The position numbers and the translations under genes were made by a program. A model generated the notes under the pieces. It made no database searches. It had not been told where the DNA came from and saw only the letters and a list, made by a program, of their open reading frames with translations. A stretch of DNA of 64,000 bases from positions 1,645 through 65,644 of the forward strand of contig CBCTTQ010000007.1 of assembly GCA_965149945.1 (NCBI GenBank), written 5' to 3'. The stretch is from an uncultured Peptococcaceae bacterium (GTDB lineage: Bacteria; Bacillota; Dehalobacteriia; UBA4068; UBA4997). Within the stretch, counting starts at the first letter, position 1. Each line of letters starts with the position of its first letter. This document shows, piece after piece, positions 2,958-59,855 of this stretch.

Positions 2958-3021
2958 CAGAACAATCTCCTTTCTTTTACCATCCACAGGACAACGCCCA
3001 TCTAATAAAATGTTCAATCCT

Positions 3022-4227
3022 CTATTCTTCTACATCTAAATAATGCCCCATTCGTTTCTGCTTTGTCCGCAGATAATGCCGGTCATACTCAGTAGCCGCA
3101 ATTTGAATCGGTACACGCTCCAAAATTTCCAAACCGAATTCCACCAACTGATAAACCTTATCGGGATTATTAGTAAGCAGCCGCATACTTTTCACTCCCA
3201 AATCCCGCAAAATCTGAGCGCCGATATAATACTCTCGTTGATCGCCGGCAAACCCCAGCGCCAAATTGGCTTCCAAAGTATCCAACCCCTGCTCTTGCAA
3301 TTCATAAGCGCGTAATTTATTGATCAAACCGATGCCGCGTCCTTCCTGCCGCATATACAAAAAAACACCGCGCTGCTCTTTTTCAATTTCCGATAAAGCC
3401 ACTGCCAACTGCTGACCGCAGTCACAACGCAAAGAACCGAAAGCATCCCCCGTCAAACATTCCGAATGTACGCGGCAAAGAATGTTTTCGCCGTCTCCAA
3501 TATCCCCCTTCACCAATGCCACGTGGTGTTCTCCGTTCAAACGATTTACATAACCGTAGGCGACAAAATCGCCATACTTAGTAGGCATTTTAGTCACTGT
3601 TACCCGATCTACCAGTTTTTCGTGGCATTTACGATATTCTTGCAGATCCTTGATGGTAATTAATTTTAATCCCCAGCGCCTGCTCATCTCCGACAACTCC
3701 GTTGTGCGCATCATGGTTCCGTCAGCTCGCATCACCTCACAACAAAGACCGCAAGGCTTTAGCCCCGCTAAACGACAGAGATCCACAGTCGCCTCTGTAT
3801 GACCGGCACGTTCCAAAACACCGTTCCGTTTAGCCAATAGGGGAAACATATGACCGGGGCGGCGAAAATCTTCTGCTTGAGCATTCGGATCTACACATTT
3901 TTGGGCTGTTACCGAGCGTTCTTCGGCGGAAATCCCCGTGCTTGTCGAAACATGATCAATGGAAACAGCAAAGGCTGTCTCATGGTTATCCGTATTTCGT
4001 TGTACCATTTGAGGCAATCGCAGTTTTTGTATATACTCCTCTGACATGGGCATACAGATTAATCCCTTGCCGTAAGTCGCCATAAAATTCACATTCTCCG
4101 TGGTGGCAAATTCTGCCGCGCAAATAAGATCTCCTTCGTTTTCCCGTTGCGGATCATCGGTCACTAAAATCATTTTTCCTTGTCTCAAATCTGCCAAAGC
4201 TTCTTCAATAGATGCGAATTGTGCCAT
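3022..4227 (-). CDS. ribBA: bifunctional 3,4-dihydroxy-2-butanone-4-phosphate synthase / GTP cyclohydrolase II
   Basis: 401 aa; a DHBP synthase N-terminal half and a GTP cyclohydrolase II half (CDCGQQL...RQEGRGIGL). Confidence 0.92.
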
Positions 4228-4239
4228 TTTATTTCCTCC

Positions 4240-4887
4240 TTAAAATCCGTGCTGAAGCAAAAAATCCCTGCTGATCCCTTGCTTTTTCTGTTTATCGATT
4301 GGGGAACGCAACAATTTTTCCACGTATTTCCCGATAATATCCGTTTCCAAATTGACCAAATCCCCCTGTCGGCGGTCACCCAAAATCGTAGCCGCTACCG
4401 TATGAGGAATAGCGGAAACAGAAAATCGATCACTTTCCACCTTTGCTACAGTCAAACTGATTCCGTCTAAAGTAACAGAGCCCTTCTCTACCACATAGCG
4501 TAGAATTTCCGCTGTTGTCTGTATTATATACCAAATTGCATTGTCATCTCGTTGAATTTTTATAATCTCACCGATCCCGTCAATATGACCGGAAACAATG
4601 TGACCGCCAAACCGTCCGTCGACCGGCAAGGCTCGCTCCAAATTCACACGACTGCCAACATTGAGTCGCGCCAACGCGGTGCGAGACAATGTTTCATGCA
4701 TCACATCCACAGAAAATGATTGTGAAAAAATTTTTGTCACCGTTAGGCAAATCCCATTTACAGCAATGCTGTCCCCGATTTGAGTTCCCTCTAAAACTTT
4801 CCGCGCGGCAATGATTAACTCACCGGAATGAACACCGTAATTAACTTGGCGAATAGCGCCGATTTCCTCAACAATCCCCGTAAACAT
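4240..4887 (-). CDS. ribE: riboflavin synthase alpha subunit
   Basis: MFTGIVEEIGAI... with the two lumazine-binding repeats; the internal Met was chosen as start. Confidence 0.9.
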   Translation of the reverse strand: MFTGIVEEIGAIRQVNYGVHSGELIIAARKVLEGTQIGDSIAVNGICLTVTKIFSQSFSVDVMHETLSRTALARLNVGSRVNLERALPVDGRFGGHIVSGHIDGIGEIIKIQRDDNAIWYIIQTTAEILRYVVEKGSVTLDGISLTVAKVESDRFSVSAIPHTVAATILGDRRQGDLVNLETDIIGKYVEKLLRSPIDKQKKQGISRDFLLQHGF

Positions 4888-48133: not shown

Positions 48134-48694
48134 TCAGGCGGAAGGCGTGCCGTATTTTTCCACCATAACTTTCACCGTGGGCAAAAGATCCTCGGCCATA
48201 TAGAAATCTCCCATACGGTCTGTTCCTTGATAAACATTTTCCACAGTACCTTTTGTGATTTTTCCGTAATCTATGTCTTCATACAGCGAAATAACACAGT
48301 CATCATTGAAATGAACATAGTAATAGCACATTCCTTCGTAACGGTGTTCATCGGGAACCTTCTCCCAAGAAGCGAAATCCACACTGTCGATGAGGGTCTG
48401 AATATCCGTCGGATCGGTAATGGTCGCTACACAAACCCGACTTTCCCCATCTATGAAAATCTGTACCTCCTGCGATTCCAATGGATAATTTTCTTCCAGA
48501 TATTGCTCGAGGGGAACTCCGTTGACCACCGTTTGGATATCCATCGGTTCTGCCGCCTGAGCGCCTTGTTCATTTTGCTCCTCCGTTTGGCCGGACTGCC
48601 CGTTGGGCTCCGCGGCGGGTTCCTTTGTCTCACCGCAAGCGGTGAGTCCCAAAGCAAAAATGGCAATGCAAAGAATCAACAATATTTTTTTCAT
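48134..48694 (-). CDS. lipoprotein, tandem paralog 1 (unknown function)
   Basis: MKKILLILCIAIFALGLTAC lipobox, conserved YYYVHFNDDC core, start at the MKK ATG. Confidence 0.75.
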   Translation of the reverse strand: MKKILLILCIAIFALGLTACGETKEPAAEPNGQSGQTEEQNEQGAQAAEPMDIQTVVNGVPLEQYLEENYPLESQEVQIFIDGESRVCVATITDPTDIQTLIDSVDFASWEKVPDEHRYEGMCYYYVHFNDDCVISLYEDIDYGKITKGTVENVYQGTDRMGDFYMAEDLLPTVKVMVEKYGTPSA

Positions 48695-48773
48695 AGGTAT
48701 CAATCTCCTTTCCTGATCAGATCATTCCAAAAATAACACGGGCACGAAATCAGGCTTTACCGTTATGTTGCCG

Positions 48774-49316
48774 TCAGGTGGAAGGCGTGCCGTATTTTTC
48801 CACCATAGCTTTCACCGTGGGCAAAAGATCCTCGGCCATATAAAAGTCTCCCATGTGAAAATGTCCTTCAGCACTTAAATCATGAATACTATCTACGGTT
48901 CCTTTTTCGATCCCACCATAAGAATCATCCTCATACAGCGAAACAGTACAATTGTCATTGAAATGCACATAATAATAGCAAATTCCATCGTACCCTTGTT
49001 GCGGAAGTACCTTCTCCCAGGAAGAGAAATCCACACTGCTGATGAGAGTCTGAATATCCGCCGGATCGGTAATGGTCGCCACATGAATAAGCTCCATTGA
49101 TTGATTAACAAAAATCTCTATTTTTTTCGATTCCAGCGGATAGTTTTCCGCCAGATACTGTTCGAGAGGAACGCCTTCCACGGTTTGCGTGTCCTCTTGC
49201 GTATTCTCCTGGACAGGCTGCCCGTTGGGCTCCGCGGCGGGTTCCTTTGTCTCACCGCAAGCGGTGAGACCCAAGGCGAAAATGGCAATGCAAAGAATCA
49301 GCAATGTTTTTTTCAT
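48774..49316 (-). CDS. lipoprotein, tandem paralog 2
   Basis: MKKTLLILCIAIFALGLTAC lipobox; N-terminus identical to paralog 1. Confidence 0.75.
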   Translation of the reverse strand: MKKTLLILCIAIFALGLTACGETKEPAAEPNGQPVQENTQEDTQTVEGVPLEQYLAENYPLESKKIEIFVNQSMELIHVATITDPADIQTLISSVDFSSWEKVLPQQGYDGICYYYVHFNDNCTVSLYEDDSYGGIEKGTVDSIHDLSAEGHFHMGDFYMAEDLLPTVKAMVEKYGTPST

Positions 49317-49375
49317 AGGTATCATCTCCCTTTATCCATTCTCGTATCGTTTCTTTACGAAAAATCAAACTTTGC

Positions 49376-49930
49376 TCACGCGGAGGGAGAACCGTATTTT
49401 TCCACCATTGCTTGTACCGTGGTCAAAAAGCCTTCCGGCATATTGAAGCATCCTTCTCTATCCGTGATCATATCATCTGTTACATATGAAGCATTTTCCA
49501 AAGAGGCCCTGCCGATATCCCCGTAAGCAATATCATCATACATGCCAATGATACAATCATCATTAAAATGCACATAATAATAATTTATGCCCGCATACCC
49601 ATCAGCAGGATCCGCAAGTCCTTCCCAGGAAGCAAAATCTACACTGTCGATGAGCGCTTGAATATCTATCGGGTCAGTAACGGTTACCACAGGTTTATAG
49701 AATAAGTCTCCGTCTATATTAGCAAAAATGATCACCTTCTTCGATTCCAACGGATAAGTTTCCGCGAGATACTGATCGAGGGGGACGCCGTTGATCGTCT
49801 GGGTGCCTGTCGGTTCTTCTGCCTCTGTCGCTTGTTCATTGGGATCCGCGACGGGTTCTTCTGTTTCTCCGCAAGCGGCAAGTCCCAACGCCAAAACAAC
49901 CAGCAGCAGAGCCATCCATATCTTTTTCAT
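49376..49930 (-). CDS. lipoprotein, tandem paralog 3
   Basis: MKKIWMALLLVVLALGLAAC lipobox; more diverged. Confidence 0.75.
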   Translation of the reverse strand: MKKIWMALLLVVLALGLAACGETEEPVADPNEQATEAEEPTGTQTINGVPLDQYLAETYPLESKKVIIFANIDGDLFYKPVVTVTDPIDIQALIDSVDFASWEGLADPADGYAGINYYYVHFNDDCIIGMYDDIAYGDIGRASLENASYVTDDMITDREGCFNMPEGFLTTVQAMVEKYGSPSA

Positions 49931-49978
49931 GGTTATCATCTCCCTTTATCCATTCTCGTATCGTTTCTTTACAAAAAA

Positions 49979-51454
49979 TCAAACTTTACCGTTATAGGTT
50001 TTATCACCAAGACAATACAGCGGTAAATCTAATGTGCTAAGAGAATTTCTGGTATTCACAGCAGCCGTATAAAGATAACGACTTCCATTTACCTGCGGCC
50101 AAAACTCTCTGTTGTATTGGCGCATATTCGTAACTTTCACTGTATTATAGAAACCCATGAAAAATCTATCCTGACTATTAGAAGTAATATTAAACGCACT
50201 TGCCCATGCAGGCGTACCAGTTTCACAAGCGCTTAAAAATACAAACTTCCAATTACCGTTGTAACCATCAATCGTTGTCCGATTCAAACTCCAAACGATA
50301 TCGTCTTTAGTATCTTTCGCACATATCACATCATTATCACCGTGTCCATAAAACATAAATCCATAAGCGTCGCTCTTCTTCAAAAAGCTCATAATTGTGT
50401 TTTTCAGTGAGTATTCCTTTGATGTTGTTCCTGTAGCAGAATATCCTAATCTCTTAAACGCGGCTTTTGCCAAGGACACATTACTGGAACTTTCGCTCAT
50501 ATAACCATCGCCATATGCTCCAGCAGAAAGCATCATGACATTACCTCCAATTACCTCACCAGTTACAGCATCCACATACACAAACTGATTACCGCCATTC
50601 AAAGAAATATTATAAGCCAATCTTACAAAATCTGCGGGTTCATAGGGACCGCCTTCTCTCCAGTAATAATTGGGCTGCACATAACATAATTCTGCTCCAT
50701 CCACAGTTGCTTGCAATTTTTCAATCACTGGCTGAGCTGCGACAATAGCTTCTTCTTTGCTGATTTCAGCGGTTGTAGTATTCGCTTCCAAATCAAATGT
50801 ACTCAAAAACGCCAAAGAAGCATCTTTTCTAGCAATGGTAATATTCACACCATCACATTCATTCACTAAACCATTTTCTAAAACTTGTCGATATGCCAAT
50901 AACCAATAATCAACAGTTACCTTTTCAGATTTAACTAATTTGTATTCCCCTTCCAGTTCCAACATTTCTAAAGTTTGTTCACCGGTAGCAATATATTGCT
51001 CTTCGCTTGTTGAAAAAGTTTCTTCCCATGTAGGCGCAAGCAAATCAGCATCAGCATGATAGATATCAACAATTTGATTATTGGAATCAACAGAAATATA
51101 AGATTCATCATCAATGATGTATTTGGTATAAATCTCATTGGTATAACCTATTACATCTTTCATTGTTTCTGCTTTTTTCACATTGTCTACAGAGATTCCC
51201 AATGTTTCCAAATCATCTTGGGTATCCTTATCCAAAACCGTTGTACTAATTCCAGATACTGTCGCACTTTTCAAAAGTATATCTTGTATATCACCATTAT
51301 TTTGTTCTGATACCGGAATAGGCTTCGCTTGCGCGATGACACTTTCCTTTTGCCCTACCACATCGGATGTTTCCGCGAAAGCACTCACGCCGGAAGTCAT
51401 GAATACCGCAAAAACTAAAAACAACGCCAACACTTTGGACACATTCTTTTTCAT
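49979..51454 (-). CDS. secreted caspase-fold cysteine peptidase-like protein (clan CD; CHAT/C11-like) with a PepSY-like N-terminal region
   Basis: Signal peptide MKKNVSKVLALFLVFAVFMTSGVSAFA. A putative His-Cys dyad sits in beta-strand contexts FMFYGHGDN and KFVFLSACETG, spaced about 40 aa apart. Confidence 0.55.
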   Translation of the reverse strand: MKKNVSKVLALFLVFAVFMTSGVSAFAETSDVVGQKESVIAQAKPIPVSEQNNGDIQDILLKSATVSGISTTVLDKDTQDDLETLGISVDNVKKAETMKDVIGYTNEIYTKYIIDDESYISVDSNNQIVDIYHADADLLAPTWEETFSTSEEQYIATGEQTLEMLELEGEYKLVKSEKVTVDYWLLAYRQVLENGLVNECDGVNITIARKDASLAFLSTFDLEANTTTAEISKEEAIVAAQPVIEKLQATVDGAELCYVQPNYYWREGGPYEPADFVRLAYNISLNGGNQFVYVDAVTGEVIGGNVMMLSAGAYGDGYMSESSSNVSLAKAAFKRLGYSATGTTSKEYSLKNTIMSFLKKSDAYGFMFYGHGDNDVICAKDTKDDIVWSLNRTTIDGYNGNWKFVFLSACETGTPAWASAFNITSNSQDRFFMGFYNTVKVTNMRQYNREFWPQVNGSRYLYTAAVNTRNSLSTLDLPLYCLGDKTYNGKV

Positions 51455-51684
51455 AATTATTCACACTCTCCTTACTTTTATTAGTGCCGTCCCGCCCACC
51501 CATCATTTTTTATAGCAAAAATTCTCAAGGGAATCTTGTGATCAAGCCTTCTTCCTGCTTTTTTTCATCACATTTTTAAGACCGCGTCCCCTTCGCCGCG
51601 GTTTTTATTCTCCATTTGGATGAACAAAATTTCCCCCGTATTTATCCAAATAGGATAAATGGCTCACACACTATACCCGCGTCA

Positions 51685-52095
51685 TCATTTTGTCGCATAC
51701 GCATATCTCATAATTTCATCGGTGCCGCCGGCTCCGTAAACGTATACCATGGCTTTCAAACGATAGCTGCCACTGCTAACCGGAGAATAGGTATCCACGA
51801 ACGACAAGGAACCTACACCGGTCATACGGCTCCAAGTTTTGATCGGATTGCCGTAGGCGCCGTTAGATTGCTTCTTCTGCAGATATACCGTGGACACAAT
51901 GCTTTCATTGGATTTCTGGGTGTTCACATACAATTTGCACTTCGCGGTAGAACCACTAATCGACAACATTGGCGTCACCTTCGCGTCAGAAGTCCAGCTG
52001 GGCACAATGTCCACCGTCGGCGCCGCCATGGCCACCGTCCCAAAAGCAAAAATCAGGCACAAGGCCAGCGCCAACACCGCGGGTTTCTTTTTCAT
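51685..52095 (-). CDS. small secreted protein (signal peptide plus a beta-rich domain of about 110 aa), unknown function
   Basis: MKKKPAVLALALCLIFAFGTVAMA; the ATG has RBS AAAGGAGGTG. Confidence 0.65.
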   Translation of the reverse strand: MKKKPAVLALALCLIFAFGTVAMAAPTVDIVPSWTSDAKVTPMLSISGSTAKCKLYVNTQKSNESIVSTVYLQKKQSNGAYGNPIKTWSRMTGVGSLSFVDTYSPVSSGSYRLKAMVYVYGAGGTDEIMRYAYATK

Positions 52096-52281
52096 CGGTT
52101 TCACCTCCTTTCTGTTTCATCCGAAGAGGAGTTTTTCCCCCTCTATTTATATAACACAATTGAGACAGCCAAAATCTGACAAAATTCACAAAAATTTTTT
52201 TTATTTTTTTCAAATTTTTTCCATTTCTTTTGCTGTTTCCTGTTCCCCTCTTTTTGCAGGTGTTTTTCCCTTATCCGCACA

Positions 52282-52320
52282 GAAAAAGTGACCGAACCAT
52301 TTCGATTCGGTCACTTTTTC
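52282..52320. terminator. bidirectional terminator after the anti-sigma gene
   Basis: gtgaccgaa...ttcggtcac flanked by an A-run and a T-run. Confidence 0.7.
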
Positions 52321-52338
52321 AAAAGAATCTATTACACA

Positions 52339-53052
52339 TTATTTCCGCAAACAAATTCCATCGGCAATCCGCAGCAATTCTTCCAACGGCAAAATGCCTT
52401 TGATCGCGAAGAAGTACTTGCCGTCCGCACTGGTCCAAATCAAATCGGAAGACCAACCCACATCTATGGGCTTATAGTAAATCGCTTCTTCGCCGGAGAA
52501 CAATTCCACCATACACTTTTCTCGATGTTCATTATCTACGCTATATGAGAAGTTATGACTGGCAAGCGCGATGTCTATCGTTAAAAATTGCCCTTCAGCA
52601 TTTCTAAACTCCCACACATTAATTATTTCTTCTGACCAATCCTCTGAAAGAACAAATGATTGTTCATAGGCTTCCGGAATATACTGAAATTCGACATCTG
52701 GCAATGTGTCATTTGTTTCGTTATAAAACTGATATGTCACATGGTCCGAAAGCCACTCTTCCAGCAAATTGCCGGCAATGGTCCGCGTCTGGGGAATAGC
52801 AAAAAGTGTCCCCGCCAAAATCGCCAGCACCACCACCGCGACCAAGGCATATTGGCGAATTCGCCGAGGAATGCTCCTCCCCTGGCGTTTGGCATATCCC
52901 AAAGGATCCGCCAGCATGCGGTCAAATCTCCGCCGCCATTTCTTACTCGGTTCCGCGTCATCCTCCCGCACATCCCGATAACGCTCTGCCGCCGCCAGCA
53001 ACAACGCGTCATGTAAACGAAGTTCCAATTGCGATTCGTTCATGGACATCAA
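52339..53052 (-). CDS. anti-sigma factor (cytoplasmic N-terminus, single TM, extracytoplasmic DUF4367-like domain)
   Basis: Translationally coupled to the upstream sigma gene through an ATGA overlap; TM at ALVAVVVLAILAGTLFAI. Confidence 0.7.
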   Translation of the reverse strand: MMSMNESQLELRLHDALLLAAAERYRDVREDDAEPSKKWRRRFDRMLADPLGYAKRQGRSIPRRIRQYALVAVVVLAILAGTLFAIPQTRTIAGNLLEEWLSDHVTYQFYNETNDTLPDVEFQYIPEAYEQSFVLSEDWSEEIINVWEFRNAEGQFLTIDIALASHNFSYSVDNEHREKCMVELFSGEEAIYYKPIDVGWSSDLIWTSADGKYFFAIKGILPLEELLRIADGICLRK

Positions 53053-53567
53053 TCCTCTTCTTGCAATTTTTTCATCAGCAGCTTCCGCGCCCTGGACAAA
53101 CGCTGCAAAGCGTTGTCACAAGTAATATCCCGCAACACGGCGATTTCCTTCGCGCGATATCCGTAAAGATAATACAATTCCAAAACATCCCGATATTTTT
53201 CGGGCAAGGCGTTGATGGCAGCCACCAGCTCTGTGGTTTCTTCCCCTTGTTCCGCGGCAATCCCGTCAAACAAATGATTATCTCCCACCGGAAAAGAACG
53301 CCGTTCTTTTTTCAAAATATTCAGCGCGGTATTGCGTGTGACCACCAAAATCCAGCCCCATTGCGCGGATTCATCCAACGCCAAAAATTGAGAAAAATGA
53401 TAAATCACCTGCAAAAACGCATCGTGTACCGCTTCATCCGCCAGCTCGGAAGATCCCAAAATTTCTTTGGCAACGCGGTACATTTTGCCACGATGGCGAT
53501 CGTAAATCCCCTTAAACAGGATTCGATCTCCGGGGGCTTCGACCTGCTCAAAATAAAACGCTAACAT
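53049..53567 (-). CDS. RNA polymerase ECF-type sigma-70 factor
   Basis: Region 2 (DRILFKGIYDRHRGKMYRVAKEIL...AVHDAFLQV) and region 4 (LPEKYRDVLELYYLYGYRAKEIA); start at the internal Met with RBS GAGAGGA. Confidence 0.85.
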   Translation of the reverse strand: MLAFYFEQVEAPGDRILFKGIYDRHRGKMYRVAKEILGSSELADEAVHDAFLQVIYHFSQFLALDESAQWGWILVVTRNTALNILKKERRSFPVGDNHLFDGIAAEQGEETTELVAAINALPEKYRDVLELYYLYGYRAKEIAVLRDITCDNALQRLSRARKLLMKKLQEED

Positions 53568-53785
53568 GCCAATCCTCTCATATCCGCAAAACGCGCGACC
53601 CTCCAAACCGATCGCCTTTAACAAAAAAGCTTTATCCATCGCGTTCATAAGCTATTGCCATTATAGCAAGTTTTTCTATCCTTGCCTAGTCATTTGCAAA
53701 ATTTTATCAATATTAGGAAAAGCCATTTTCTGATTTTACTCCGAGAAAATCTTCTTTTTATGCGTTTTTTTTATAAGATATGCAA

Positions 53786-56117: not shown

Positions 56118-57290
56118 TCAGTCTTTTTTTTCCAAAAATCCACTACGCGAAGGCAAAGCAAGGATTTTTTCATAAAAGGCCAGTGTGGCTTCAGCAGTTT
56201 TTTGCCAATCAAAACGAGCGCTCCACGCAAGCCCTTTCTGTCCCATCTGTCGCAACAGTTTCGGATCATTCAGCGTCTCCACCAAAACTCTTGTCATCGA
56301 ATCGGTATCCATGGCGTCAAAATAGCAAGCCGCATCACCGCCTGTTTCTCGGAGAGAAGAATTATCCGCCACCAATACAGGGCAACCACAAGCCATCGCC
56401 TCTAAAACAGGCAAACCGAATCCTTCATAAAAAGAAGGATATACCAAGGCGGATGCACCGCCATAAAAGTACGGCAACAAATTCCCAGGTACAAACCCCG
56501 GAAACACCACCCGTTCACCAATTCCCAAGGATGTTGCCAATTCTGTCAAAGCAGCGGTTTCTCTTCCGCAACGTCCGGGACAAACCAGCAGATACGGCGT
56601 GTGCCATTCTGATTGTGCCCGAGCAAAAGCCGTCAACAAACCGGACAAATTTTTCCGACGGCTAAAACCACCCACATACAGCAAATAGGCTCCGTCAATG
56701 CCGTATTGACGCCGTAACACCCCTTTGCAAGTTTCAGAAGCAGTCAACGCGTAAATCGGCTCTGCCGCCTCATAAATAACGGCAATTCGATCTTCCGGGT
56801 ATTTAAAAAACCGCAGAATATCCCTTTTGGTATGGTTGGAGACCGCAATAATTCCGTCGCTTTTGCCTATAATGGCAGGCATATCATGCAGAAATTCTTT
56901 GCGATAACCCCGCCCCACCGATTCAGGATACACATAAGGAATCAAATCGTGAATAGTCACAATGGTGCGACAAGGCGCCGCCAAAGGCAGGCCAATGCCG
57001 TTTTGCGGCACATGATAGAGAACTGCTTGTTGTTCTTTCAGCCAACAAGGCAAAAATTCTTCTTCGCAATAACGGGGATTCTCCTGAATACGGGTACATC
57101 TCGCGCTATCCGTAAAATCCAAGTCCTCGTATTCCTGCCCCGGCAGAAAAAAAGAGATTTCCTCACCGACCAACTTCCGCAAATGTACTGCCAATTGATA
57201 GGTATAGGTGCCGATGCCCGTGCCGCGATAATGAATGGCGCCCCTGGCATCCAAGGCAATTCTGCCCCCCTTTATTCCGTTTTTTGCCAT
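56118..57290 (-). CDS. glycosyltransferase family 4 (GT-B)
   Basis: 390 aa with the C-terminal EGFGLPVLEAMACGCPV motif. Confidence 0.85.
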   Translation of the reverse strand: MAKNGIKGGRIALDARGAIHYRGTGIGTYTYQLAVHLRKLVGEEISFFLPGQEYEDLDFTDSARCTRIQENPRYCEEEFLPCWLKEQQAVLYHVPQNGIGLPLAAPCRTIVTIHDLIPYVYPESVGRGYRKEFLHDMPAIIGKSDGIIAVSNHTKRDILRFFKYPEDRIAVIYEAAEPIYALTASETCKGVLRRQYGIDGAYLLYVGGFSRRKNLSGLLTAFARAQSEWHTPYLLVCPGRCGRETAALTELATSLGIGERVVFPGFVPGNLLPYFYGGASALVYPSFYEGFGLPVLEAMACGCPVLVADNSSLRETGGDAACYFDAMDTDSMTRVLVETLNDPKLLRQMGQKGLAWSARFDWQKTAEATLAFYEKILALPSRSGFLEKKD

Positions 57291-58747
57291 CTGCGATCCC
57301 CTCCGTCAGCAACCTGTTCATAGCGCACAGTGAAATATAGTTCCTCTTGCAACACCTGCCTTTCCGTCATCGCAAGATGGACAACCAACCCCGAGGGACT
57401 AACCAAACAATCATCCCCTAAAATCGATATCGGTTGTTCTGCCGAAACAGCCGCCGCTTCCATTGCCATCATCTCCGAATCCGCCCTTTCGGCATCTTCG
57501 TCTGCCGCCAAACGTTGTGAAAACTCCGCCGAAACCTGTTCCAAATCAGGATGGCGCCGTTCTTCCTCTTTCGGCGGCAAAGCGGTTTCTTGGGCCGCAG
57601 ACAAGACATCCGTATTTTCAAAGGTTCCTTGCTCCGCTTCTTCCGCCGATAGGGATTCTCTCACATTACTCGCAGCCAAAACATCCTGCAATTCCGCTGC
57701 CGACGATCGGTCTTTTTCGGAAAGCTCCGCTGCCGTCGAGACAAAATCGCCTTCTCTTGCTTCTACTTTTTCCGATTGTAAATTTTTGCAAATTTCTTTT
57801 CCTGATTGTTCATGCGAAATGGATGAACCGGCCGCGACGGGAATCGGCTCATCCGGTTGAGGATCCAACAAAGGGCGATGTTCCTTTTCAGCTATTCGGT
57901 TCCGCTTTTGCAATTTCAACAAGGCATGGCTTTTTAATGTTCCCAAATCAGTCACAGGAGATTCTGTTTCTTCCGCTTCTGCCTTTGTCTCGGTATCCGC
58001 GCGCGCCTTCTCAGAAGTTGTTACAGAGTCGGCTTTTGCTGATCGAGCATCGGAATTAAAAGATTCTCCCCCTATTCCAACAGAAGAATCTTTTTCTTCG
58101 GCCTTACGCGCTGATTTCTCTGTTTCGCTTTGAGAAACCGCTTCGGCAACAGCATAACGCGCATCCTCTGCCTGCGGAGAAACAGACAATTCTTCCTTCT
58201 CCAATGACGGTGAAGAAGGTATTGAAACAACAGATTCTGTCGATCCATATTCAGCTAAAACACGCTGTACCTCAGAACTTGGCTGATACGAGGAAGAAGA
58301 TGGCGACTCAGATTTTTCTTTTGAAAAAGACATCGATTCAGCAACATTCGATTCGGCGATCGTGACAGGCGAAATCTCCTCACAATCCGAAATGATAATT
58401 TTGCCACTGAATTCCAACACATAGGGTGACAAAACTTCTAATTCCTCAGCTTGTAATTCCGGCCGCACCCATTTTTTCTCTGTTTGTCGCCAATCGTTCG
58501 ACAGTTCCAGCTTCAGAGGCAATGTAACTCTGGTTTTATATAATTTTTGACCTTCCAGCCCCCAATAGTCCAAATGCAAGGTATAACGGCCGCTCAGCCA
58601 AATCTGTCCGCCATGGCACAGCAAATCGTCAAAGAAAAGCTTTGACGAAAATCCTTCAATTTTTCGCACCCCCATGGCGTCTTTTGCTAAAAACACCGTT
58701 TGTTTCAAGGGAAGCGCAACTTTTTGTCGATCATGTCCAGTGGTCAT
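57272..58747 (-). CDS. hypothetical protein with a structured N-terminal domain and a long acidic Ser/Glu/Ala-rich low-complexity region
   Basis: 491 aa; residues ~130-430 are low complexity; 19-nt overlap with the downstream GT4 gene. Confidence 0.5.
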   Translation of the reverse strand: MTTGHDRQKVALPLKQTVFLAKDAMGVRKIEGFSSKLFFDDLLCHGGQIWLSGRYTLHLDYWGLEGQKLYKTRVTLPLKLELSNDWRQTEKKWVRPELQAEELEVLSPYVLEFSGKIIISDCEEISPVTIAESNVAESMSFSKEKSESPSSSSYQPSSEVQRVLAEYGSTESVVSIPSSPSLEKEELSVSPQAEDARYAVAEAVSQSETEKSARKAEEKDSSVGIGGESFNSDARSAKADSVTTSEKARADTETKAEAEETESPVTDLGTLKSHALLKLQKRNRIAEKEHRPLLDPQPDEPIPVAAGSSISHEQSGKEICKNLQSEKVEAREGDFVSTAAELSEKDRSSAAELQDVLAASNVRESLSAEEAEQGTFENTDVLSAAQETALPPKEEERRHPDLEQVSAEFSQRLAADEDAERADSEMMAMEAAAVSAEQPISILGDDCLVSPSGLVVHLAMTERQVLQEELYFTVRYEQVADGGDRRWQKTE

Positions 58748-58814: not shown

Positions 58815-59855
58815 TTATTTTTCTGATTCATCTACCATTTGCCAAATTTCCGAAAAGACTTTCCGGCAAACTTCATCCACCTCTTCAAAATTCATCGCCT
58901 TCACATAATATTCTTCCAGCTCATTATGGAGCCGTTTCGCCGCGGCAATACTGCCAACAGCCTCCTCCAAAAAATCCTCTTCCGGCAACACAGTTTCCTC
59001 CAAAGGCGCCAGCTCTACCAAAACATCCCCCGTGAAAGGTTCCAGCTCCGGTACTGAAGCATCCACCGCAGCAAAACCGATCTGCGGCAATACCACCATT
59101 TCATAACATTCCGGCGCCAAAGTACTATGATAAATATCAATATCATGACCACGCAAAACAGCGGCTTCTTCAATGCGTCGCAAAAAAGAATCAATATCAT
59201 AGCGATTCCCGCCGCGCAGTAAAAAACGCTTCTTCATACCGGCACAAAGAGACTGACGATATCCCACCCAGCCCCGCGGTGTAATAGCGGCAGCAAAAAA
59301 ATGAGAAACTTTTGCCAAATCCTCATGAAAAATTTCTCCGATCACATCGTTTGCCAAAGCCGTAACCCGTTTTTCTCCAACGGAATGGGTTTCCGCGTAA
59401 TCATCATAAGCATTGCGATAAGCAGCCAATTTTTCGTAAGCGTCTTGAAAATAGCAGGAAATTTCTTCCGTCAGACGAATAATTTCCTGTTTGTTTTCCC
59501 GTAACAAATCGCGGTTCCAATGATCACCCAAATTAATAATCTCATCCACTGCGCCTGGATAAACCGGATCGACCAAATGAGGTGAAGTCCCATCCACCAC
59601 CGCAATTTTTAAAGAAGGCACCACTACTCCATCCAAGGAATCATTGTCAGAAGAACACTGCCAAACTTCTACATCATAACCGCGTTCCGTCAGATTAAAG
59701 GCGATTTTTTTCATTAATGTACTTTTCCCTGTACCAGGACCCCCCTTCAATACAAAAATTCGTTCCATTCCTCTCAGACCATCAGCATAAAAAGAATAAA
59801 ACCCCGAAGGCGTATTGCTGCCCGGATATTTATGAATCATGCTTCCCTTTCTCAT
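58815..59855 (-). CDS. uncharacterized P-loop NTPase
   Basis: Walker A GGPGTGKST near the N-terminus, Walker B-like VVDGTSPH, GAGGTG RBS. Confidence 0.6.
   Translation of the reverse strand: MRKGSMIHKYPGSNTPSGFYSFYADGLRGMERIFVLKGGPGTGKSTLMKKIAFNLTERGYDVEVWQCSSDNDSLDGVVVPSLKIAVVDGTSPHLVDPVYPGAVDEIINLGDHWNRDLLRENKQEIIRLTEEISCYFQDAYEKLAAYRNAYDDYAETHSVGEKRVTALANDVIGEIFHEDLAKVSHFFAAAITPRGWVGYRQSLCAGMKKRFLLRGGNRYDIDSFLRRIEEAAVLRGHDIDIYHSTLAPECYEMVVLPQIGFAAVDASVPELEPFTGDVLVELAPLEETVLPEEDFLEEAVGSIAAAKRLHNELEEYYVKAMNFEEVDEVCRKVFSEIWQMVDESEK

Follow-up and report, generated by a model that had tools for sequence, protein, structure and literature searches.

Which kind of enzyme is encoded at positions 49979–51454 (minus strand) of the stretch of DNA studied here, and what do the N-terminal part of the protein and the neighboring genes contribute to its function? 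The stretch, which is called the window in the following, comprises 64,000 nucleotides of contig CBCTTQ010000007.1 from an uncultured Peptococcaceae bacterium. An initial annotation of this DNA had proposed a secreted peptidase of caspase fold, reminiscent especially of CHAT domains, that is preceded by an uncharacterised N-terminal region. According to the listing of open reading frames (ORFs) and to the homologues described below, the gene codes for a secreted precursor of 491 amino acids, which consists of a signal peptide, three PepSY-like modules and a caspase-fold domain. The interpretation that we favor, with some reserve, is that of a zymogen: a caspase-fold cysteine peptidase that is exported by the Sec pathway, is restrained by its PepSY modules and is under the control of an extracytoplasmic function (ECF) sigma factor.

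Compared on its own to Pfam, NCBIfam and the sequences of the PDB, the protein gave no significant match; Pfam PepSY was found below the threshold only. A word-indexed search in a set of 5.8 billion proteins returned 15 homologues, none of which contains a Pfam domain. A profile made from these 15 sequences was then compared to 1.84 billion cluster representatives and matched 602 of them at E ≤ 1e-3, of which 113 reached E ≤ 1e-30. The family size given here is a lower bound, amounting to at least 602 clusters at 50% identity. A word-indexed search with a profile of the catalytic domain returned one protein, and the scan of a genome collection with a PepSY motif pattern confirmed two loci. No paralogue was found by tblastn elsewhere in the window.

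The signal peptide that had been assigned previously was borne out by several features. The N-terminus (MKKNVSKVLALFLVFAVFMTSGVSAFA/ETSD) displays the n-, h- and c-regions and the AxA site that are characteristic of Sec signal peptides, and this pattern is kept across the homologues in the corresponding alignment (A1). As read from the sequence, the signal peptide comprises residues 1–27 (51374–51454, minus strand), with MKKNVSK at its start, a hydrophobic core, and SAFA/ET at its end.

The three-dimensional structure of the precursor was modeled with AlphaFold2. The single sequence resulted in a useless model with a predicted local distance difference test (pLDDT) score of 35, whereas an alignment of 150 sequences gave a model with a pLDDT of 91.6 and a predicted template modeling score of 0.74. 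In this model, residues 309–491 (49982–50530, minus strand) form a domain of the caspase/hemoglobinase type, which is clan-CD-like according to AlphaFold2, Foldseek and a profile of the isolated domain (A4). Its secondary structure elements are arranged in the order b1-a1-b2-a2-b3-(hairpin)-a3-b4-a-b5-a4-a5-b6, that is, with six strands and five main helices. In the layout described for clan CD, five helices flank a six-stranded sheet, beta3 is followed by a small beta section, and the loops that come after beta3 and beta4 carry the catalytic dyad (PMC4357240). The order of the elements along the modeled chain corresponds to this layout. Furthermore, a Foldseek comparison of the model to the PDB yielded 64 matches at E ≤ 1e-3, nearly all of which are caspases. 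Among them are caspase-11 (8e-6), the SAVED-CHAT protease 8tl0 (1.1e-5), caspases 1, 3, 6, 7, 8 and 9, and CED-3. Caspases and CHAT were matched at E 8e-6 to 1e-4, and the TM-score is about 0.5 over the length of the caspase. In a set of viral models, "caspase domain" proteins of giant viruses were matched.

The candidate catalytic residues agree with this fold. The initial annotation had pointed to the motifs YGHGDN and FVFLSACETG, each of which follows a hydrophobic stretch, and had read them as the His and the Cys of a clan-CD peptidase. They correspond to residues 369–374 and 404–413. The predicted catalytic His is His371 (codon 50342–50344, minus strand), which is followed by Gly372, and the predicted catalytic Cys is Cys410 of the FVFLSAC motif (codon 50225–50227, minus strand). 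The two residues are 39 positions apart, and each of them comes after a predicted beta-strand (E363–369 and E404–408, respectively). In the model, His371-Gly372 and Cys410 are placed at the C-terminal ends of beta3 and beta4, as is usual for clan CD. Counted among 159 retrieved sequences wherever the respective position was covered, His371 is conserved in 119 of 119 cases; the figures are 116 of 122 for Gly372 and 119 of 122 for Cys410. Such conservation greatly exceeds what chance would produce. The Cys is lost in the remaining 3 of the 122 relatives; for example, protein P0150 reads FLDFSDS. The annotation had itself named a non-caspase fold, or a lack of conservation of the proposed His and Cys, as outcomes that would speak against it. 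Structure prediction, the Foldseek comparison and the analysis of conservation gave a caspase fold and a dyad that is invariant or nearly so. At the level of the protein, the annotation was thus confirmed, whereas its regulatory details are weak.

The position two residues ahead of the catalytic Cys allows for a tentative statement on specificity. Asp177 of the C11 peptidase PmC11 and Asp462 of the paracaspase MALT1, both of which are located at Cys-2, are the main S1 determinants of these enzymes (PMC4850288). In the family studied here, an Asp is found at this position in 98 of 123 relatives. The protein from the window contains a Ser (residue 408), and its closest relatives contain Ser, Ala, Asn or Leu. 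By analogy, most family members should prefer Arg or Lys. Because Ser408 replaces the Asp of the S1 position, the enzyme from the window probably does not share this preference and would differ in specificity.

It was then asked how the catalytic domain is related to the families of clan CD. For the profile A4, which was made from 44 isolated C-terminal domains, the best PDB match was the CHAT chain 8tl0 (E 0.0036), and the alignment brings the His and Cys residues of the two into register. To this extent the earlier emphasis on CHAT was justified, since CHAT is the nearest neighbor by profile. Membership in CHAT was ruled out, as no member of the family matches the Pfam model PF12770: there was no match at E ≤ 10 for the query, none at E ≤ 0.01 for the 112 full-length members, and none at E ≤ 10 for the 44 isolated domains. 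For caspase-1 p20, the same profile aligned LGY...SHG in register with a non-significant E of about 1. Membership in the caspase family C14 (PF00656) was likewise rejected; the best E was 0.11, in two of the 44 domains, and the QACxG pentapeptide is lacking (SACET in the query, DACxT in most relatives). The same applies to the clostripain family C11 (PF03415), for which there was no Pfam match and where the residue at Cys-2 is an Asp in the 98 relatives mentioned above and a Ser in the query. The gingipain model C25 (PF01364) matched two of the 44 isolated domains with a best E of 1.3e-4 and did not match the query itself. One domain matched C13 (0.12). C25, C14 and C13, all of which belong to clan CD, are the only peptidase families among the weak Pfam matches of the isolated domains, and the remaining ten weak matches are scattered singletons from unrelated families. 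No curated model reaches significance, and the catalytic domain therefore constitutes an uncatalogued family of its own that has the fold and the dyad of clan CD and is not a member of CHAT. Its nearest relative is CHAT by sequence, and caspases and CHAT by structure.

This position is also reflected in the similarities to known enzymes. The CHAT proteases known so far reside in the cytoplasm and are linked to sensor domains of the TPR, SAVED or a similar type. With the SAVED-CHAT protease of type III CRISPR (PDB 8TL0), the domain shares the caspase/hemoglobinase fold as well as a His-Gly and an (S/N/D)-A-C motif after hydrophobic strands; in contrast, it is much smaller (about 183 amino acids), extracellular, and joined to PepSY modules. 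Like the caspases of family C14, it has a core of six strands and five helices and a dyad that is located on the loops after beta3 and beta4 with a spacing of 39 residues. Unlike them, it is secreted and does not contain the QACxG pentapeptide, and no sign of an inter-subunit cleavage site or of dimerisation as in caspases was seen in the protein from the window. The clostripain/PmC11 enzymes (C11) and the gingipains (C25) are comparable in that they are exported bacterial clan-CD enzymes which are made as precursors; for gingipains, an inhibitory N-terminal propeptide of about 200 amino acids is described (PMC3677877). In addition, most relatives of the window protein have the Asp at Cys-2 in common with C11 (compare Asp177 of PmC11). 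The differences are a minimal six-stranded core instead of the extended nine-stranded sheet of C11, a prodomain that consists of a PepSY triplet, the lack of a match of the query to either Pfam model, and the Ser instead of the Asp at Cys-2.

What is the nature of the part that precedes the catalytic domain? The initial annotation had noticed a PepSY-like stretch, TTAEISKEEAIVAAQPVIEKLQATVDGAELCYV, within a region that it otherwise left uncharacterised. In the AlphaFold2 model, this stretch (residues 228–260) forms the helix and the first strand of a PepSY-like module, so the hint was correct. What did not hold was the separation of this stretch from its surroundings, as all of residues ~55–306 belongs to three tandem modules, each of which is predicted to adopt the alpha+beta4 topology of the PepSY fold. 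Module 1 (residues ~55–135; 51050–51292, minus strand) has a helix at residues 76–84 that is followed by four strands. Module 2 (residues ~150–222; 50789–51007, minus strand) consists of a helix at 151–164 and of strands at 172–178, 183–191, 197–208 and 213–221. Module 3 (residues ~228–306; 50537–50773, minus strand) was delineated by means of both the model and Pfam PepSY, and ends in DAVTGEVIGG. The sole Pfam match of the query, PepSY (PF03413), lies in this module (residues 278–303, E 0.0017, 19.1 bits at a cut-off of 24 bits), and its residues D295, A296, T298, G299 and E300 are invariant in the homologue alignment A1. Among 112 relatives, Pfam PepSY was detected in 28 (best E 1.5e-6) and DUF4901 in 27. 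The top PDB match of the complete model is 5boi, the C-terminal domain of YpeB with its triple PepSY arrangement (Foldseek E 2.4e-8 over 259 columns), and the family profile shows a weak match to the propeptide of LasB pro-elastase (E 0.2). As far as prediction allows such a statement, the window gene thus encodes an exported protein in which a caspase-fold domain with a conserved His-Gly/Cys dyad is fused to three PepSY-like modules.

The distribution of the two parts among relatives is informative as well. In locus L021 they are encoded by two separate genes, one for the PepSY region only (2976–3890) and one for the catalytic domain only (3887–4522). Stop and start of these genes overlap, and each product has its own signal peptide. 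The coexistence of fused and split versions is a classical sign of two parts that work together. Further family members consist of a signal peptide and the catalytic domain only (about 210 amino acids). In P0023, the PepSY region is joined to SLH repeats, which take the place of the caspase-fold domain. Moreover, L021 contains the gene of an anti-sigma-like protein (1008–2042) whose extracytoplasmic part is homologous to the PepSY region of the peptidase (E 3e-31 with a profile of the N-terminal part; weak Pfam PepSY). The three PepSY domains of YpeB have been proposed to be chaperone-inhibitors "akin to pro-domains in protease zymogens" (bioRxiv 10.64898/2026.06.01.729290). The arrangement described here resembles the FTP-PepSY propeptides of M4 peptidases (LasB, thermolysin), which act in cis, and the YpeB-SleB pair, which acts in trans, in that the PepSY part is either fused to the enzyme or split from it. 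It differs from them in the partner enzyme, which is a predicted caspase-fold cysteine peptidase and not a metallopeptidase or a lytic transglycosylase. In a literature search, no paper was found that describes the combination of PepSY and a caspase-fold cysteine peptidase.

The peptidase gene is part of an island in which all genes are located on the minus strand. The order is sigma factor, anti-sigma factor, terminator, a gene for a protein of 139 amino acids, a spacer of 230 nt, the peptidase gene, and three lipoprotein genes. The sigma gene (53049–53648, minus strand) codes for an ECF-type factor of the sigma-70 family (Pfam Sigma70_r2 and r4_2; TIGR02937 with 65.7 bits compared to a cut-off of 42.9), and the consensus scan assigned to it a sigma-A-like promoter, TAGGCA-17-TATAAT, at 53688–53660. 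The sigma genes in the clusters of relatives also have sigma-A-like promoters (TTGCAA-17-TATAAT). The next gene (52339–53052, minus strand), whose synteny is kept in loci L007, L008 and L012, shares 4 nt with the sigma gene and codes for a putative anti-sigma factor with an extracytoplasmic DUF4367 domain (Pfam E 1.6e-5, above the cut-off). It is followed by a strong intrinsic terminator (52282–52320, minus strand) with a stem of 17 bp and a subsequent UUUUUCU; the fold of the 81-nt stretch 52255–52335 has an energy of -29.8 kcal/mol (z -5.9). The small secreted protein of 139 amino acids (51685–52104, minus strand) is 59–62% identical to its equivalents in L007 and L008, and a homologue exists in L012. 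It has no match in Pfam, NCBIfam or PADLOC. Its gene is always found between the genes of the DUF4367 anti-sigma factor and the peptidase (window, L007, L008, L012), and the order sigma, DUF4367, small protein, peptidase is kept in L007, L008 and L012. No defence model of PADLOC matched the peptidase, the anti-sigma factor, the small protein or the lipoprotein.

In order to judge how general this linkage is, 32 loci including the window were compared. Since several of these are the same or nearly identical contigs, the number of distinct locus types is about 15. In 16 of the 32 loci (the window, L007, L008, L012, L017–L019, L021–L026, L028, L029 and L031), the peptidase gene has an ECF sigma gene as its neighbor, which corresponds to at least 6 of the approximately 15 distinct types and to at least six arrangements. 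Based on this conserved adjacency, the peptidase is probably controlled by the neighboring ECF sigma factor. A different surrounding was seen for P0149 (L014:1–4518), a truncated relative of 329 amino acids from a metagenome-assembled genome of Peptostreptococcus. Its gene stands beside three genes for CW_binding_2 (Cwp-type) surface proteins and a prophage-like Bro-N/ANT-HTH block, and the locus contains no sigma or lipoprotein partner.

The ECF clusters of L007 and L008 contain a further type of secreted protein (L007:9878–11323, 481 amino acids; L008:3942–5345, 467 amino acids). These proteins and the homologues of the peptidase have almost identical signal peptides. The N-terminal domain of the former has the motif VVFLNSHGN and, about 60 residues later, LITFAGCLTAN, which is a second, unrelated His-Gly/Cys pattern after hydrophobic strands. 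The proteins have no Pfam match and were not detected by the profile of the catalytic domain; they may represent another uncatalogued clan-CD-like family.

Directly downstream of the peptidase gene lie the genes of three partner lipoproteins. Copy 1 (49376–49939, minus strand; 187 amino acids, lipobox LAACGE) begins 39 nt after the peptidase gene. Copy 2 (48774–49325, minus strand; 183 amino acids) is 52% identical to copy 1 and 66% identical to copy 3, and copy 3 (48134–48703, minus strand; 189 amino acids) is a paralogue of the other two. Their mutual identities are in the range of 52–66%, and the intergenic gaps measure 39–70 nt. The sister locus L012, which belongs to a close relative of the window organism, contains two copies (L012:3360–4531) compared to three in the window. 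The repeated sequence that codes for the signal and linker of the lipoproteins gave rise to spurious "terminator-like" calls on the plus strand at 48598–48622, 49220–49244 and 49841–49859. The lipoprotein family is rare (10 database clusters), and it occurs immediately beside the peptidase gene in seven distinct loci (the window, L012, L001, L007, L016, L010 and L004), the peptidases of which have identities of about 30–100%. The two genes overlap by 4 nt in L007, and the lipoprotein domain is duplicated in L010. Apart from the lipoprotein signal, there was no match in Pfam, NCBIfam or the PDB. An assignment to Imm36 or to another known family was rejected on the same grounds, namely the lack of Pfam and NCBIfam matches. 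A second lipoprotein family of about 180 amino acids is encoded directly downstream of the peptidase gene in L009 (7515–8054) and L032 (4721–5272). The two proteins can be aligned over their full length (20% identity, pairwise E 3e-6) and have no detectable kinship to the lipoproteins of the window.

A comparison with L012 by blastn revealed an uneven divergence of the island. From the sigma gene to codon ~45 of the peptidase (window positions 53290–51318), the DNA is 95% identical. Over the body of the gene (51318–50008), identity falls below 70% or the sequences are unalignable, and from the last ten codons through the lipoprotein genes to a YgjV-like gene it amounts to 84–86%. The divergent segment (50008–51318, minus strand), which encodes the mature protein, has a GC content of 0.371 compared to 0.46 on both flanks, and has the appearance of an allelic replacement relative to L012. 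At the protein level, the two peptidases are 48% identical overall and 80% identical over the first 40 columns of the alignment, i.e. in the leader. The loci L007 and L008 show the same tendency: their peptidases are 56% identical, whereas the sigma factors, anti-sigma factors and small proteins are 76–83% identical. Because the body has diverged while the flanks are conserved, these sequence comparisons indicate that exchange or evolution of the mature enzyme proceeds at a much higher rate than that of its regulatory frame. Downstream of the intact peptidase gene and its lipoprotein gene, L007 contains a second copy of the peptidase gene that is broken into three ORFs and is hence frameshifted or decayed (L007:8084–9610). 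An integrase gene is located at the end of this locus.

The remainder of the window consists of ordinary chromosomal genes, among them those for FtsH, a TilS-like protein, a ComM-like ATPase, permeases and a glycosyltransferase. A second ORF with a length of 491 amino acids (57272–58747, minus strand) is not related to the peptidase, and the equal length is a coincidence. Its product is very acidic, rich in Ser, Glu and Ala, and has no Pfam match. The adjoining ORF (58815–59855, minus strand) codes for 346 amino acids with the P-loop motif GPGTGKST and likewise has no Pfam match.

The initial annotation had furthermore assigned a terminator, a promoter-like region and an inverted repeat to the region upstream of the peptidase gene. 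The spacer of 230 nt contains a GC-rich hairpin at 51581–51601 (fold z -2.4). On the coding (minus) strand this hairpin is followed by CUUAAAAAUG, and a run of T residues is found on the plus strand only. A consensus scan of the minus strand from 51455 to 51684 called neither a terminator nor a promoter of the sigma-70 type. As the T-run is on the wrong strand and the scan does not call the hairpin, the notion of a proper terminator in front of the peptidase gene was abandoned. With respect to the promoter, the scan gave no support; by eye only, a TGnTATAAA element that resembles an extended -10 region (~51504–51512) and a TATAGT box (51668–51673) can be seen. The inverted repeat ATTTATCC-N5-GGATAAAT at 51640–51660 is present exactly as described, directly after an element TATAGT-TG-TGTGAGCC. 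Its occurrence does not exceed what is expected by chance in this DNA: 43 perfect 8-bp inverted repeats with spacers of 3–10 nt exist in the window, compared to a mean of about 10 (range 1–15) in five block shuffles, so that such repeats are common here. As an RNA, the repeat folds no better than shuffled sequences (z -0.5). An interpretation as a significant operator or RNA element was rejected for these two reasons.

The element adjacent to the repeat is of more interest. TATAGT-TG-TGTGAGCC resembles a sequence TATArT-N2-3-TGTGTGRGC in L007 and L008, where it precedes the genes for the peptidase and for the second type of secreted protein at a distance of about 25 nt from their ribosome-binding sites. 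In its longer form, TATArT-N2-3-TGTGTGRGC(T)TTAAT, the element was found by the upstream motif hunt at 51657–51673 of the window (minus strand) and at L007:5896–6000, L007:9735–9877, L008:3835–3941 and L008:5524–6000. This element may indicate where the true promoter lies and where transcription starts. The genes for the small secreted proteins (131–139 amino acids) are preceded by another conserved element, TTGTCA(C/G)-N17-19-GTGTT. The elements shared between loci are suggestive, and the upstream motif hunt identified none that could be assigned to an ECF sigma factor.

Taken together, these observations suggest the following mechanism. After cleavage of the signal peptide, the exported protein would consist of the three PepSY-like modules (~55–306) joined to the catalytic domain of 183 residues. 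His371 (together with Gly372) and Cys410 at the ends of beta3 and beta4 form the usual clan-CD dyad, as far as can be judged from the model and from their conservation. In analogy to the FTP-PepSY propeptides of M4 peptidases and to YpeB-SleB, the PepSY triplet would restrain the catalytic domain, serving as its intramolecular chaperone-inhibitor. The catalytic domain would be released by a cleavage in the conserved linker GG-x-x-M-x-x-G (~303–312) or by displacement of the prodomain. Expression is probably set by the envelope-signalling module of the island, with its ECF sigma factor, DUF4367 anti-sigma factor and small secreted protein, as suggested by their conserved adjacency. The peptidase gene would be co-transcribed with the genes of the three membrane-anchored lipoprotein paralogues. 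At the cell surface, the enzyme is most likely bound by these lipoproteins, which would either inhibit it and so protect the producer or serve for its docking; of all the steps, this one is the least secure.

Several findings weigh against this zymogen model. The activity, the substrate and the processing of every family member are inferred. None of the Pfam, NCBIfam and PADLOC models recognises the catalytic domain, and its sequence links to known clan-CD families are marginal, with an E of 0.0036 at best. The fusion to SLH repeats in P0023 shows that the PepSY region is not confined to acting as a prodomain. ECF control is deduced from adjacency only; in about half of the loci no sigma gene is located nearby, the strong terminator follows the anti-sigma gene, and no ECF-type promoter in front of the peptidase gene emerged from the consensus scan or from the upstream motif hunt. 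A lipoprotein partner is missing from the sigma-adjacent loci of the L017–L029 type. Finally, the lipoproteins of the window and of L012 are about 80% identical while the body of the peptidase is replaced (48%), which is unlike the behavior of a tightly co-evolving inhibitor.

Some of these findings have to be considered in the light of other explanations. Caspase-like C-terminal toxin domains ("Tox-Caspase") are known from polymorphic toxin systems (Zhang et al. 2012, PMC3482391). The protein could accordingly be a Sec-secreted antibacterial peptidase toxin of this kind that attacks competing bacteria at their surface, and the lipoproteins could provide membrane-anchored immunity, with the tandem array covering several effector alleles. 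The C-terminal position of the peptidase domain and the small extracytoplasmic proteins encoded directly downstream (three copies, two in L012, with the 52–66% identity given above) are in agreement with such a system, and so is the replacement of the mature segment by a low-GC allele within a conserved leader and conserved flanks. The divergence of the L007 and L008 peptidases (56%) in comparison to their sigma factors, anti-sigma factors and small proteins (76–83%) points in the same direction, as do the integrase, CHAP/lysozyme-like and helix-turn-helix genes near L007 and L008 and the decayed second copy in L007. The resemblance to Tox-Caspase systems thus comprises the C-terminal caspase-like domain, the small downstream genes, and a conserved leader with a variable body; the PepSY prodomain and the linkage to an ECF sigma factor set the window protein apart from them. 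However, the trafficking or repeat domains that mark a polymorphic toxin (RHS, LXG, WXG, filamentous repeats) are missing, and the lipoproteins match neither Imm36 nor any Pfam family. The candidates for immunity did not change together with the effector allele (80% versus 48% identity), and many loci of the family have no such lipoprotein neighbor. PepSY prodomains are typical of ordinary secreted proteases, and the island of the window is embedded in chromosomal housekeeping genes. We consider the toxin explanation unlikely.

The peptidase could also be a component of the ECF pathway itself, which would be switched on if the enzyme performed the site-1 cut of the anti-sigma factor or processed the small secreted protein into a signal. 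It recurrently adjoins sigma/anti-sigma pairs of at least six types, in four loci the gene of the conserved small secreted protein separates the anti-sigma gene from the peptidase gene, and the anti-sigma-like protein of L021, the extracytoplasmic part of which is homologous to the PepSY region, could be recognised like a prodomain. We know of no site-1 protease for ECF anti-sigma factors that belongs to clan CD, which counts against this possibility. A sigma gene is absent from half of the loci of the family. The sigma genes have ordinary sigma-A-like promoters and are separated by a terminator from the peptidase gene, which fits the combination of a regulator and its target better. We judge a role within the pathway to be quite improbable. 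Clan CD also includes transamidases. It is therefore conceivable that the caspase-fold domain is not a hydrolase and instead is a transpeptidase or ligase that attaches proteins to a surface acceptor, comparable to GPI8 and legumain-type ligases, or a non-catalytic binding module. The few members without the Cys (3 of 122, such as P0150 with FLDFSDS) and the fusion of the PepSY region to SLH cell-wall anchors would be compatible with this. That His, Gly and Cys are nearly invariant speaks in favor of catalysis, and the gene context contains neither sortase-type signals nor genes for acceptor synthesis, which makes a ligase or binding module the most remote of the explanations considered.

With regard to the preferred explanation, a PepSY-restrained zymogen, it is useful to separate what is familiar from what is new. 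Secreted clan-CD cysteine peptidases with a prodomain are already known as a kind of enzyme. New are the family itself, the architecture with a PepSY triplet, the lipoprotein partners, the linkage to ECF sigma factors and the cassette-like variability, which are absent from the databases and the literature searched. Members of the family occur in gut and other metagenomes, where they are currently annotated as "hypothetical", and neither Pfam nor NCBIfam has a model for them.

Clan CD, with caspases, gingipains, clostripains, separase and the CHAT proteases of CRISPR and CBASS, is central to cell death, virulence and immunity, and its secreted representatives in Gram-positive anaerobes are barely charted. 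The proteins described here would extend control by PepSY domains, which is known from metallopeptidases and from YpeB-SleB, to a third class of enzymes, and the naturally fused and split versions are handy for testing this concept. If the family is confirmed, a new MEROPS and Pfam family would be justified, and gut Clostridia would offer candidate proteases together with candidate protease inhibitors. It is tempting to speculate, with due caution because we regard it as rather doubtful, that the system is a Sec-dependent and ECF-sigma-controlled weapon of gut Clostridia that is directed against other bacteria or against host surfaces. Its PepSY modules would keep the effector safe until export, its mature part would be exchanged as a cassette, and the lipoprotein arrays, which belong to at least two unrelated families, would confer immunity. 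If this were true, the second His-Gly/Cys family of L007 and L008 would be a sister effector. In more general terms, the ECF linkage, the dedicated lipoproteins and the cassette-like replacement point to a regulated extracellular activity that is under diversifying pressure, be it in self-protection, in competition or in the remodeling of surfaces.

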